Shown here piece after piece: positions 19,866 to 53,715 of a stretch of DNA of 64,000 bases (its first letter is position 1; every line of letters starts with the position of its first letter). The stretch lies in NCBI RefSeq assembly GCF_048403405.1, contig NZ_CP183129.1; one strand, given 5' to 3'. The notes below the pieces were generated by a model, which ran no database searches, was not told where the DNA came from, and saw only the letters and a program-made list of their open reading frames with translations. Made by a program: the position numbers and the translations under genes. Source of the DNA: Escherichia coli (GTDB lineage: Bacteria > Pseudomonadota > Gammaproteobacteria > Enterobacterales > Enterobacteriaceae).

Positions 19866-20738
<873 letters not shown>

Positions 20739-21893
20739 TTATGCCTGCCACGGATGAATGATTACGCCTTGCACCACGCGGTTAACGGTGCCGCTGGCTG
20801 ATGGGGTATCCGGCGTATTGCCCATGTGCAGCGATTGCATCAGTGCAAACGTCTGGGCGTACATCAGGAAGCAAAATGCCTGCTCAACGTCGATAAAGTG
20901 ACGGGACGGCGGCAGGATGATATGTGGACCGGCGGTAATAACGTCGTTGCTTTCCGCGGCGATGGCGATTACGCGCATTGCCTGGTTATCGCGGCGGAGT
21001 TCTGCCAGCAGATCAAGATCATACTGACGGGTGTAAGGGTGGCTGGAGACAAAAAACACCACCAGCGTTTCGTCATCGACCAGCGATTTTGGTCCATGAC
21101 GGAATCCGGTCGGGGAATCATAAAAGGCCGCCAGTTTACCCGCCGTCAGTTCCAGCACTTTCAGCGCCGACTCGCGTGCTGCGCCCTGTAAGCCACCGCT
21201 GCCGAGATAAACGATCCGTTTCCACGGTGCGTAACCAAACACACCCTCGCTGAAATCGCCCAGTGAGGTCAGGATCGCCTGGCAACGATCCGCCACGTCG
21301 CGGAAGCTCTGGCTATTGATCGTCTCAGGTGCGAAAACCGCGAGGCAGCTGGCCATCATGGTGGTAATGCTGCTGGTCATCGCAAAGCCGCGATCGTGCG
21401 TTTCTGCGGGCATCAGCAGGGCAAACGCGTTGTCGCTGTTGATCGCGTTTTGGTAAAGAGCGCCCGCTTCGTTGCAGGTGATCGGCAGGTGATAGCATTC
21501 TGGTACAAATTGATTTGCCAGTTCCACGGCGGCGACGCTTTCCGGGCTGTTGCCGGATCGACCGAAGGAGATCAACAGTAGCGGATGAGCTGGATTCAGG
21601 TAGTCCATCGGATTAGTGACCAGATCGGTGGTCGGTACGGCGCTGAAGTTTTTACCGGTATGGCTGGCGAGCCACGGCGCGATGATGTCACCGATAAATG
21701 CCGAGGTTCCGGCTCCGGTCAGGATTACCCGCAGATTCTCTTTGAGCAGTAACGGTTCAAGGAAGTTATTGAGCGCGGAACGTAGCGCGTCGATGTTGGT
21801 GAGTGAACGGATCCATGCGCGAGGCTGATGGCGGATCTCTTCTTCAGTCCATGTACCGGTTGCGGCAGCAGCAGGGGTGTAATTTTCTGGCAT
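20739..21893 (-). CDS. agaS: SIS-domain galactosamine-6-phosphate deaminase AgaS
   Basis: ORF track 384 aa; recognised as AgaS. Confidence 0.92.
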   Translation of the reverse strand: MPENYTPAAAATGTWTEEEIRHQPRAWIRSLTNIDALRSALNNFLEPLLLKENLRVILTGAGTSAFIGDIIAPWLASHTGKNFSAVPTTDLVTNPMDYLNPAHPLLLISFGRSGNSPESVAAVELANQFVPECYHLPITCNEAGALYQNAINSDNAFALLMPAETHDRGFAMTSSITTMMASCLAVFAPETINSQSFRDVADRCQAILTSLGDFSEGVFGYAPWKRIVYLGSGGLQGAARESALKVLELTAGKLAAFYDSPTGFRHGPKSLVDDETLVVFFVSSHPYTRQYDLDLLAELRRDNQAMRVIAIAAESNDVITAGPHIILPPSRHFIDVEQAFCFLMYAQTFALMQSLHMGNTPDTPSASGTVNRVVQGVIIHPWQA

Positions 21894-21899
21894 AACTCA

Positions 21900-22240
21900 A
21901 TCCTTAGTCTGATGAACTTGACGTCGGGCGTTGTCGCTTTCGCTTACCTTTCGTTTCATTTCACTTGGTGATGTCTTTCGTTGATTAAAATCTATAGAAA
22001 AGAAACTGAAAGTTCAATGGAGAAAAAAGAAATAAAACGAAATTTGTGATCATTGAAAGAAAAGACAAGGGAAGATTAAAGGATTGCGTAATGACGTCGC
22101 TATGTTCACCGATTGCCGGATGCGGCGTACCGTAGGTCGGATCAGACGCGTTAGCGTCGCATCCGACACCGCTGCACAGATCAAAAAGAAAGAAAAAGAA
22201 AGGCCTTACGGGGGAAGTGAAGGCCCAATAATGGAGCAAA
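21900..22240. promoter_or_regulatory. agaS promoter region with repeated CTTTCGTTT-type AgaR boxes, plus a REP-like element (about 22110-22172) distal to agaA
   Basis: Multiple copies of CTTTCG/CGAAAG half-sites read directly; assignment to AgaR is from the known operator consensus. Confidence 0.45.
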
Positions 22241-22243
22241 CCA

Positions 22244-23377
22244 TCAAATCGAAGCTAATTGACCCTGAATCCAGATTTGTTGCACATGCAGCCCGCTATC
22301 CAGCGCAACGACGCTGGCGCGTTTGCCCGGTTTAAGCGATCCCAGAACACCATCAACACCCAGCATTCGCGCCGGATGCAGCGACGCCATATGGATGGCT
22401 TCCGCAGGCGTTACGCCCGTTAACTCGACCATGTTGCGCACTGCTGCATCGACAGATAGCGTACTGCCCGCCAGCCCACCGGACGCGGTACGGACAACGC
22501 CACCGTGCATCTGCACTTCTTCGCCACATAACGTATAGCGACCATCCGGCATCCCAGCTGCCTGCATCGCGTCGGTGATCAGTACGATTCTCTCTTTCGC
22601 ACAGCAACAACACAGCGACATCGCCGCCGGATGCACATGATGACCATCGGCTATCAGTTCCAGCCAGGCGCGCTTGTCCGTTAATCCCGCGCCAACCATT
22701 CCCGGTTCGCGGTGATGTAAACCTGTCATCCCGTTATAGCAATGCACCAGGCCGTCGGCACCAGCATCAAATGCGGCGCGGGTTTGTTGCCAGGTCGCCG
22801 CGCTATGCCCCAGCATCACCCTTACGTTTTGCTGTTTAAGATGGCGGATGGCCTGCAATGCCCCTTCTTTTTCCGGTGCCAGCGCTACCACGCGCAAGGT
22901 GTGCTGAGAAACGGCAATCAATTGATCCAGCTCGGCAATTTCCAGCTCGCGAAACAGCTCCGGCGGATGCGCGCCTTTATTCTGCGGCGTGAAGTATGGT
23001 CCTTCGAGATAACTCCCCAGCACTTGCGCACCAGGTCCGTCGCGTTGGCAACGTTGAGCAATACGTTTCAGCGCCGCATGAATGGTATTAAGCGGCGCGG
23101 TTACGGTGGTCGGTAACCAACTGCCGACACCTTCGCGTGCTTTGTGCATTGCCAGCTTGTCGAGCACATCCGGCGCGTCATCCATTACATCAACGCCCGC
23201 ACCACCGTGTACATGGGTGTCGATGTAAGCGGGGCAGAGCAGTTCCGCATCGCGTTCAGTCACGCCCACTGGAATCGGTTCGATTGCTGCGATTACACCG
23301 TCAGCAATACGCAACTGATGGTCATCGAGCCATCCCTCTTCAGTCAGCAGCCTTCTGGCGCGCAAAACGGGTGTCAT
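22244..23377 (-). CDS. agaA: N-acetylgalactosamine-6-phosphate deacetylase AgaA, full length
   Basis: ORF track 22244..23398 (384 aa); ATG giving MTPVLRARRLL... yields 377 aa and overlaps the agaF stop as ATGA; NagA-like amidohydrolase; K-12 carries only a truncated agaA. Confidence 0.88.
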   Translation of the reverse strand: MTPVLRARRLLTEEGWLDDHQLRIADGVIAAIEPIPVGVTERDAELLCPAYIDTHVHGGAGVDVMDDAPDVLDKLAMHKAREGVGSWLPTTVTAPLNTIHAALKRIAQRCQRDGPGAQVLGSYLEGPYFTPQNKGAHPPELFRELEIAELDQLIAVSQHTLRVVALAPEKEGALQAIRHLKQQNVRVMLGHSAATWQQTRAAFDAGADGLVHCYNGMTGLHHREPGMVGAGLTDKRAWLELIADGHHVHPAAMSLCCCCAKERIVLITDAMQAAGMPDGRYTLCGEEVQMHGGVVRTASGGLAGSTLSVDAAVRNMVELTGVTPAEAIHMASLHPARMLGVDGVLGSLKPGKRASVVALDSGLHVQQIWIQGQLASI

Positions 23378-23808
23378 ATTCCTTCCTCGACCGGACATTC
23401 TTCATGGCAGCGGCCTAACTCGTCCACCAAACTGGTCAGCCCACGGTGTCCACACTCCAGCGCCTGCACACGGAACTCTTCACCGCTTAACCCTTCGCGC
23501 TCCAGCACCATCTCCAGTAGCAGTTGCAAATTGGTGCCGGTGATCACTTCACAGCCCGGTTTTTGCATCGCCAGCGTTGAAGCTACGCGAAACGGCGTGC
23601 CGCCCAGCAAATCTGTCAGAAAAACAATGCCGTCTTCACAATCCAGTTGGGCGAAGGCCTCTTCAAGCTGCGATGTAAGCAGCGCGGTGCTTGAGGTTTC
23701 CGGAAAATCGATGGCGATAAACTGCGATTGCTCGCCGAGGATTTGCTTCATTGCTTTTTCCATGCCGCTGGCAAATCCGCCATGCCCTGTCAAAATAATA
23801 CTTAACAT
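23374..23808 (-). CDS. agaF: PTS N-acetylgalactosamine-specific IIA component AgaF
   Basis: ORF track 144 aa; mannose-family IIA recognised as AgaF; absent from K-12. Confidence 0.88.
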   Translation of the reverse strand: MLSIILTGHGGFASGMEKAMKQILGEQSQFIAIDFPETSSTALLTSQLEEAFAQLDCEDGIVFLTDLLGGTPFRVASTLAMQKPGCEVITGTNLQLLLEMVLEREGLSGEEFRVQALECGHRGLTSLVDELGRCHEECPVEEGI

Positions 23809-23825
23809 CTAATACCTCATTGTAT

Positions 23826-24710
23826 TTAAAGGAAATGACAGAATTTACCGACGATACCGAGAACCACGGTAACTGCAATCAGGCGCAGCGGACTCCAGCC
23901 GCGGCGTACCAGCCAGAACATGGTCAGGGTGTAGACCAGCGGTAAGAAGGCAGGCATCAGTTTGTCGATAACATCAGCCTGTAACTTAACCACTGCATCG
24001 CCAGCGGTGATTTCCAGCGTGGTGCTTAAACGAACATAGGTTGCTACCAGCGCGCCGATTACCGTCATCCCAACGATTGACGCAGCATGGCCGACTTTTT
24101 TGGTATTCGCTTTAATGAGTGGAATCGCCGCCACGCCCATGCGGTAAGCATAATGCGCCAGACCAAAACGCAGCCCCAGGTGTACCACGTTAAACAGCAC
24201 AATAAAGACGACTGCGCCAAGAATGGAGCCTTGCAATGCCAGACTGGCTCCAATCCCGCCACAAATCGGCAGTAGCGTTAGCCAGAACATTGCATCGCCA
24301 ATCCCGCCAAGCGGCGCACCGACGGCAATTTTGGTGCTCTGAATACTGTTAACGTCCTGCTTAGAACGCTCCATCGCAAGGATAATGCCGATAACAAACG
24401 TCACCAGAAACGGATGGGTATTGAAGAAACCCATATGCCCTTTCATGGCGCGCGCCAGGTCGCGTTTATTAGTGTGGATCTTTTTCAGAGCAGGCAGCAG
24501 ACCGTACAACCAGCCAGAAGCCTGCATACGTTCGTAGTTAAAAGACGCTTGTAACAGCATGGAACGCCAGGCGACGCGGTTGATATCTTTTTTTGTCAGC
24601 TCCGCGCCAATACTCTGATCTTCATACACGTTTTCATTGACGCCTGTCAGCAGTGTTTCTTCGTTTTCACTGACGTTCGGCAGGGTGGTTTGATTAGATG
24701 CCATCTTCAA
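23826..24710 (-). CDS. agaE: PTS N-acetylgalactosamine-specific IID component AgaE
   Basis: ORF track 294 aa; paralogue of AgaD; absent from K-12. Confidence 0.88.
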   Translation of the reverse strand: MKMASNQTTLPNVSENEETLLTGVNENVYEDQSIGAELTKKDINRVAWRSMLLQASFNYERMQASGWLYGLLPALKKIHTNKRDLARAMKGHMGFFNTHPFLVTFVIGIILAMERSKQDVNSIQSTKIAVGAPLGGIGDAMFWLTLLPICGGIGASLALQGSILGAVVFIVLFNVVHLGLRFGLAHYAYRMGVAAIPLIKANTKKVGHAASIVGMTVIGALVATYVRLSTTLEITAGDAVVKLQADVIDKLMPAFLPLVYTLTMFWLVRRGWSPLRLIAVTVVLGIVGKFCHFL

Positions 24711-27260: not shown

Positions 27261-27508
27261 TTTCCTCTCCAGTTCAGATTACTGCGATATTAATCTTTCG
27301 TTTTGTTTCAGTTGATACTGCGCCATGGTGAGATAAAAATAAAACGAAAGATAATGGTTTTCTGATCTGATTCACAAAAGAAACATAATGAAAGCCACTG
27401 AAACGAGAGTAGCTTGCGCCAATGGGTAAGGTGGGCTTGCATTTGCTTAATAGAAAGGCGTTAATAGGCAAAACGAAATGAAACGAAAGTTTTACGAAAG
27501 GACTTACT
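27261..27508. promoter_or_regulatory. divergent kbaZ/agaR promoter region with several CTTTCGTTT-type AgaR boxes
   Basis: Motifs ctttcgttttgtttc, aaacgaaagataa, aaacgaaatgaaacgaaagttttacgaaagg read directly from the sequence. Confidence 0.5.
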
Positions 27509-28318
27509 ATGAGTAATACCGACGCTTCAGGTGAGAAGCGAATGACAGGCACCAGCGAGCGACGAGAACAGATCATTCAGCGTCTGCGACAGCAAGGGAG
27601 TGTGCAGGTTAACGATCTGTCGGCATTGTATGGCGTATCTACTGTGACGATCCGCAACGATCTGGCGTTTCTGGAAAAGCAGGGGATCGCTGTGCGTGCC
27701 TATGGCGGCGCGTTGATCTGCGATAGCACGACGCCGTCAGTCGAGCCATCAGTGGAAGATAAAAGCGCGCTGAACACCGCAATGAAACGCAGCGTTGCGA
27801 AAGCTGCCGTTGAGTTGATTCAGCCAGGTCATCGGGTAATCCTCGATTCCGGGACCACCACTTTTGAGATTGCTCGTCTGATGCGCAAGCACACTGACGT
27901 AATTGCGATGACCAACGGTATGAACGTGGCTAATGCGTTGCTGGAAGCGGAAGGCGTTGAGCTGCTGATGACCGGCGGGCATTTGCGCCGTCAGTCGCAA
28001 TCTTTTTACGGCGATCAGGCTGAGCAATCGCTGCAAAATTACCACTTCGATATGCTGTTTCTTGGTGTAGATGCGATCGATCTGGAGCGCGGCGTCAGCA
28101 CACATAATGAAGATGAAGCTCGTTTAAACCGCCGGATGTGCGAAGTTGCGGAACGGATCATCGTGGTCACCGATTCCAGTAAGTTCAATCGTTCCAGTTT
28201 ACATAAGATCATTGATACTCAACGTATCGACATGATCATTGTTGATGAAGGCATTCCTGCGGATAGTCTGGAAGGGCTGCGAAAGGCTGGGGTTGAAGTG
28301 ATTCTGGTCGGGGAGTGA
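27509..28318 (+). CDS. agaR: DeoR-family repressor of the aga operons AgaR
   Basis: ORF track 269 aa; N-terminal HTH and DeoR C-terminal domain; recognised as AgaR. Confidence 0.93.
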
Positions 28319-50467: not shown

Positions 50468-50575
<108 letters not shown>

Positions 50576-53609: not shown

Positions 53610-53715
53610 AAATTGCCAGATGCGCTACGCTTATCTGGCCTACGCGGTCATTGTAACATATTGAATATAAACGTTTTGTGGGTTTGATAAGGCGTTCACG
53701 CCGCATCCGACATGA
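53610..53715. repeat. REP elements (two copies)
   Basis: GCCAGATGCGCTACGCTTATCTGGCCTACG and GATAAGGCGTTCACGCCGCATCCGACA read directly. Confidence 0.5.

Follow-up and report, generated by a model that had tools for sequence, protein, structure and literature searches.

We conclude that the 350-bp spacer between agaA and agaS is very probably the boundary between two aga/gam transcription units, and that it comprises a hairpin, a REP element, the promoter PS and a pair of operators. The spacer occupies positions 21894-22243 of the window, by which we mean the whole 64,000-nucleotide stretch of Escherichia coli DNA analyzed here. We are confident that it is regulatory DNA, in which one aga operon would end and the following one would begin under AgaR control. 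The agaS promoter and its repression by AgaR were already published in 2004, and the feature is not new; because PS is already in the literature, the sequence-only reading of this DNA, which had proposed an internal promoter for agaS-kbaY-agaBCDI, describes a published promoter. That reading overlooked the hairpin and T-tract directly past the agaA stop codon, and the sole part that might be new is a candidate third operator within this T-tract.

The aga/gam genes lie on the minus strand, with agaS read from 21893 downward, and the spacer is the gap between the first and third of the following genes.

20739-21893, minus strand: agaS, encoding an AgaS-family isomerase (TIGR02815, E = 3e-189)
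19866-20726, minus strand: KbaY open reading frame
22244-23398, minus strand: agaA, encoding a NagA/AgaA-type deacetylase
23374-23808, minus strand: AgaF open reading frame
27509-28318: agaR, encoding a DeoR-family repressor with HTH_DeoR and DeoRC domains (profile match), divergent from kbaZ

The spacer was found in 5312 of 5426 complete E. coli genomes. E. coli N3, in which it is identical, carries an annotated agaW-agaE-agaF-nagA followed by agaS-kbaY-agaB-agaC, and K-12 has the same spacer downstream of a truncated agaA pseudogene. No annotated feature lies under the spacer match in the 30 listed RefSeq records, nor in K-12. The window strain has intact agaA and agaWEF, whereas K-12 has an agaW'-agaA' deletion: within 22244-24710 of the window, the agaA, agaF and agaE/agaW-type open reading frames are intact, so the 2.3-kb deletion of K-12 is absent here. 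This strain is probably able to use GalNAc.

Promoter and operators of agaS

The K-12 agaS promoter PS (Ray and Larson 2004, Mol Microbiol 51:813, as summarized in PMC3668189) has the same locus and gene order, and the repressor gene of that system, agaR, is also present in the window. According to the same summary, which cites Ray and Larson (2004), GalNAc induces Pz-lacZ 5-fold and Ps-lacZ 20-fold when the fusions are in single copy, and AgaR binding is known for the K-12 agaS promoter, whose sequence is nearly identical to ours; AgaR is also described as binding repeats in the aga control regions in tandem (PMC5018945, citing Leyn 2012). From GATCACA to the agaS ATG, K-12 and the window show about four differences, all of which fall outside the operator cores and the two promoter hexamers. 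The comparison with K-12 that had been suggested from the sequence alone therefore gives agreement for the operator cores and the -35/-10 elements but not for the REP region, about 50 bp of which differs, with 1.5 REPs here and a two-REP cluster in K-12. The elements of the promoter region are as follows.

21989-22017, minus strand: predicted core promoter PS, with -35 TTGAAC (22017-22012), a 17-nt spacer and -10 TAGATT (21994-21989)
21945-21968, plus strand: predicted proximal AgaR operator, with core TTTCGTTTCATTTC (21949-21962) and no mismatch to the 24-nt consensus given below
22023-22046, minus strand: predicted distal AgaR operator, with core TTTCGTTTTATTTC (22029-22042) and one mismatch to that consensus
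21974-21983, plus strand: the box tctttcgttg, which overlaps the predicted start and is replaced by unrelated sequence in other genera
22045-22051, minus strand: conserved GATCACA motif adjoining the distal operator, function putative
21901-21905, minus strand: Shine-Dalgarno sequence AAGGA of agaS, read from the sequence and invariant in 15 genera

We scanned the 64-kb window for AgaR boxes with what is reportedly the 24-nt AgaR consensus, WRMMTTTCRTTTYRTTTYNYTTKK, allowing up to three mismatches. The scan returned six matches (0.21 expected), three in the agaA-agaS spacer, three in the agaR-kbaZ spacer and none elsewhere in the window. The 14-mer TTTCNTTTYNTTTC, common to the best sites, has five matches in the 64 kb against 0.06 expected, again in these two spacers; the bare 9-mer CTTTCRTTT is not significant alone (four matches in the window, 1.8 expected). 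The earlier proposal of AgaR-type boxes upstream of agaS is upheld by this excess and by box positions that are kept across genera. Three strings had been named as boxes, and two of them, ctttcgtttcatttcac (21948-21964, plus strand) and aaacgaaatt (22036-22045, plus strand), belong to AgaR operator cores. The third, tctttcgttg, is restricted to Escherichia and would at best be an auxiliary site specific to that genus.

PS is the single sigma-70-like candidate on the agaS strand, scoring 8/12 in a relaxed scan and lying between both operators; a strict consensus scan, with a threshold of 9/12, detected no promoter in the spacer. Its predicted start is near 21982, although we infer the exact start site, as we do termination at the hairpin and any cooperation between operators. 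Across 15 genera the TTG of the -35 element and five of the six -10 positions (TAnATT) are invariant, which favors the 17-nt spacing over the alternative TATAGA, and the TTTC runs within the 17-nt spacer are conserved as well. Conserved -35 and -10 elements bracketed by operators, together with the match to the published PS, support an internal promoter at this place.

Relative to the predicted start, the distal operator, which includes aaacgaaatt, lies at about -64 to -41. The proximal operator, whose orientation is opposite to that of agaS, falls within the 5' leader at about +15 to +38. The two form a 14-nt inverted repeat (93%) with 66 nt between its arms. Their centers, at roughly -52 and +26, are about 78-80 bp apart, a distance that falls between full turns of the helix and so lends no support to a simple in-phase loop. 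Most likely, AgaR, the DeoR-family repressor encoded at 27509-28318, occupies both operators and would there block initiation or early elongation at PS, until metabolism of GalNAc or GalN relieves the repression. PS, with its TTGAAC and TAGATT hexamers flanked by the two inverted operators, would then drive agaS-kbaY-agaBCDI. DeoR at deo and GlpR at glp are likewise DeoR-family repressors with several short-repeat operators on both sides of the start. The AgaR case differs from DeoR and GlpR multi-operator control in that the distance between its operators does not make up complete helical turns.

Conservation was assessed from one genome per species with AgaS, giving 71 loci in Escherichia, Citrobacter, Enterobacter, Klebsiella, Raoultella, Kluyvera, Lelliottia, Yokenella and others, among them Salmonella diarizonae, Mixta, Pluralibacter, Yersinia, Buttiauxella, Kosakonia and Cedecea. 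We aligned 15 representatives and, separately, 69 distinct sequences (MAFFT). In most of the 71 loci agaA is upstream of agaS, and the spacer between them measures 343-350 bp in Escherichia and 245-305 bp outside it. Of the 71 loci, 68 have the proximal operator core, always inverted and placed -64 to -75 from the ATG; as GAAAYGAAACGAAAG, it is the best-conserved block of the spacer. Most of the loci have the distal core at positions -149 to -152 relative to the ATG, and its orientation is always forward. Five blocks are conserved in both alignments, namely ATCACA, TTTCGTTTTATTTC, TTGAAC with the TTTC runs and TAnATT, AAGTGAAAYGAAACGAAAG, and AAGGA, and the positions of the operators and promoter are conserved in at least 15 enterobacterial genera. 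In the same alignments neither the middle box at 21974-21983 nor CTTTCGCTT at 21937-21945 is conserved. The 23 kb that lie upstream of agaS in the 71 loci contain the 14-mer TTTCNTTTYNTTTC 174 times, and the surrounding 340 kb contain it once, an enrichment of about 2500 times.

The ATCACA of the GATCACA motif is kept in at least 90% of the 69 distinct upstream sequences. The motif may be one half of a CRP site (TGTGA) centered near -70.5, or a flank of the AgaR site; no good second CRP half-site is visible beside it in the sequence. In Escherichia sp. MOD1-EC7003 (L010, positions 1835-1860), a 7-bp deletion of ACAAATT falls at the junction of GATCACA and the distal operator (CAATGATCTCGTTTTATTTC). 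Escherichia albertii NBRC 107761 (L073, positions 1740-2000) lacks agaA upstream of agaS; its -35 region and both operators are degraded, the proximal one having lost 5 bp, which suggests that aga regulation is decaying in this organism. Elsewhere in the window, the agaR-kbaZ spacer (27261-27508) carries consensus-class AgaR boxes at 27292-27315, 27374-27397 and 27469-27492, and a CRP-site-like motif, TGTGA-N6-TCAGA, follows the middle box.

The hairpin after agaA and a candidate third operator

Two adjoining elements lie between the agaA stop codon and the remainder of the spacer.

22201-22226, minus strand: hairpin 18 nt past the agaA stop codon (nine pairs, -10.2 kcal/mol, z = -2.3)
22182-22201, minus strand: T-rich tail of the hairpin, which includes TTTCTTTTTCTTTC at 22188-22201

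Read on the agaA strand, the hairpin (22226-22201) is followed by UUUCUUUUUCUUUCUUUUU, a tail broken by C residues; given its modest stability and this interrupted tail, termination may be partial. A consensus terminator scan with a loop limit of 8 nt detected no terminator in the spacer, and it missed the hairpin because the loop exceeds that limit. The hairpin is at the same place in every genus with agaA upstream, with stems that vary between genera (e.g., GGCCTTCGG/CGCAAGGCC, GGTTTGTGG/CCACAAACC and TGTCTGTCGC/GCGACAGAC), and compensatory double changes occur in all five of the five consensus pairs (e.g., CG:14 versus UA:10). The hairpin and T-tract are probably the intrinsic terminator of the kbaZ-agaVWEFA transcript, which they would end upstream of PS. 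Pairing of the T-tract with the agaS Shine-Dalgarno sequence (UCCUU against AAGGA) was considered and ruled out, since there is no CC in Escherichia.

The T-tract, which corresponds to about 3281670-3281690 in K-12, may have a second role. At 22188-22201 it fits the operator 14-mer exactly, the same 14-mer that is so strongly enriched upstream of agaS, and this candidate site would occupy roughly positions -219 to -206 relative to the predicted PS start. If it is a real AgaR site, the region has three operators rather than two, and AgaR bound there could act jointly with the operators at the promoter, or it could influence whether transcripts of the upstream operon terminate or read through. 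The pattern of conservation argues for such a site: from Yersinia to Citrobacter, CCTTTCTTTTCCTTTC is nearly invariant despite turnover of the adjoining stem and loop, whereas an ordinary U-tract is expected to tolerate C-to-T changes. Canonical, purine-containing versions stand at the same spot in two loci (TTTCATTTCATTTCG in L072 and TTTCGTTTTCTTTC in L078), and in Kosakonia the spot is taken by (CTTTCG)n or (CTTTCA)n arrays. Other evidence points the opposite way. The T-tract departs from the 24-nt consensus at three positions and has pyrimidines in places that are purines in the known sites, and a T-rich terminator tail is required at this position anyway. Nor is its distance from the distal operator constant. 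Most genera have about 102 bp between the two and Enterobacter and Lelliottia about 47 bp, whereas insertion of the REP has brought the figure to 159 bp in Escherichia. On balance, we regard a third operator as quite possible but not as the favored reading, which keeps the T-tract as a terminator tail and the operators at two.

The arrays of the two Kosakonia species (L065 and L077) follow the hairpin at about -250 to -200 from the agaS ATG, where tandem (CTTTCG)x6 or (CTTTCA)x7 replaces the T-tract. It looks as if the AgaR half-site unit had expanded there in the manner of a microsatellite.

The REP element and its alleles

Between the T-tract and the distal operator, the window has the following features.

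22132-22170, minus strand: complete, Z-like REP, GGTGTCGGATGCGACGCTAACGCGTCTGATCCGACCTAC (hairpin of -21.9 kcal/mol, z = -4.0)
22114-22131, plus strand: left half of a Y-type REP in the opposite orientation, TGCCGGATGCGGCGTACC, truncated in this allele
22076-22136, minus strand: allele-specific segment, of the window type in 2842 of 5426 genomes

A REP-like palindrome had been noticed at about 22110-22172, and it proves to be a genuine REP by its folding, its similarity to other copies in the window and its extragenic position; the palindrome spans 22114-22170. None of 200 shuffled sequences folds as well as the complete REP, whose similarity to a REP at 50471-50504 of the same window is 82% (blastn-short). 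TGCCGGATGCGGCGTA, at 22114-22129, is the left half of a Y-type REP at 50557-50572, identical in 16 of 16 bases. Rfam gives sub-threshold matches only, among them a weak one to naRNA4, an RNA derived from REPs, with E = 0.06 and a score under the gathering cutoff. The element shares with E. coli REPs and BIMEs an imperfect palindrome of about 35-39 nt, a tail ending in CCTAC and an intergenic position past a 3' end. It departs from them in its stem, CGGAT/ATCCG here and, reportedly, CTGAT/ATCAG in the Z1 consensus, and in that only the left half of the second REP is present in the window, whereas K-12 has a full inverted pair. Other REPs in the window form a two-REP cluster at about 50469-50574, with more at 53630-53712.

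The central 50 bp or so of the spacer fall into two allele classes in E. coli. The window type, with 1.5 REPs, is found in 2842 genomes and the K-12 type, with a full inverted second REP, in 1387; the remaining genomes mostly have B2-like variants of the K-12 type. A full second REP is thus shared by the K-12, O157 and B2-type alleles. An Escherichia species representative, recorded as E. coli strain E69 (L012, positions 1700-1830), has a longer allele that combines a complete second REP with a window-type tail; the gene upstream in this strain is not agaA. A form like that of E69 could be ancestral, as the two common alleles look like different deletions of it, and their equal length would then probably be a coincidence.

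IS621 targets REPs, and this one is no exception. In E. coli LP5-1 (NZ_CP101866.1; L080, positions 1400-1730), a copy of IS621, a member of the IS110 family, interrupts the first REP at ...ATCCGACCT^ACAG, a site homologous to about 22132-22140 of the window, and the agaA terminator and agaS promoter are intact on either side.

REPs stabilize upstream mRNA, and we considered whether this REP contributes functionally to the regulation of agaS or to the stability of agaA mRNA. As a 3' RNA hairpin it could keep exonucleases off the upstream transcript; alternatively, DNA-binding proteins could occupy it and alter operator geometry. It folds strongly and lies just downstream of the agaA hairpin, with the candidate third operator on one side and the promoter on the other. 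This is unlikely in our view. The REP is missing from every non-Escherichia genus with the same gene order and operators; in the alignment of 15 representatives no REP is found at this position outside Escherichia, its place being taken by an AT-rich stretch in most other genera and by nothing in Enterobacter and Lelliottia. Within E. coli it is polymorphic at roughly equal frequencies while the locus is retained, and it tolerates the IS621 insertion of LP5-1. Moreover, if the hairpin terminates transcription, the REP lies beyond the 3' end of the transcript. We favor the view that it is an Escherichia-only polymorphic insertion, probably without a regulatory role. The sequence-only reading was right that a REP is present, but it had counted the element among the marks of the promoter, and it belongs instead to the region downstream of agaA.

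Reading frames in the spacer and its annotation

Two open reading frames overlap the elements described above.

21985-22239, minus strand: 84-aa frame with a TTG start, spurious, running through the terminator, REP and promoter
22084-22335, plus strand: 83-aa frame with a TTG start, spurious, antisense to the agaA 3' end

It is extremely improbable that the spacer encodes a small protein from either frame. Both are open in the window strain, and the plus-strand frame is also open in K-12 and O157, yet natural alleles break each of them. The minus-strand frame is interrupted by in-frame stops in K-12, 6A, O157 and H105, and SCU-108 has a frameshift in it; in the plus-strand frame, the first 20 or so residues are completely different between alleles, H105 has a stop and SCU-108 a frameshift. 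The conservation of its C-terminal part is due to the agaA coding sequence on the other strand. A search of both frames against NCBIfam and Pfam profiles gave no family match, both begin with TTG, and neither is annotated in the RefSeq records listed or in K-12. What they would translate is terminator, REP and operator DNA, and the DNA under them is missing outside Escherichia. The suspicion that both frames are spurious is accordingly well founded; a conserved, expressed protein encoded here had been named as the observation that would overturn the regulatory reading, and the frames are not kept open even among close relatives.

The main value of this analysis is correct annotation, in that the two open reading frames should not be called as genes. 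The cross-genus footprint further pins down the likely -35 and -10 elements of agaS and separates the "boxes" that selection maintains from those that it does not. The TTTC-repeat tail of the hairpin, which is invariant, provides a candidate additional AgaR site that can be tested at little cost. Tentatively, and with slightly more doubt than we attach to the third operator itself, we propose that the same 14-16 bases may serve across Enterobacterales both as the tail of an RNA terminator and as a third, far-upstream AgaR operator, whose distance from the promoter would have been altered in Escherichia by insertion of the REP and by its two alleles.
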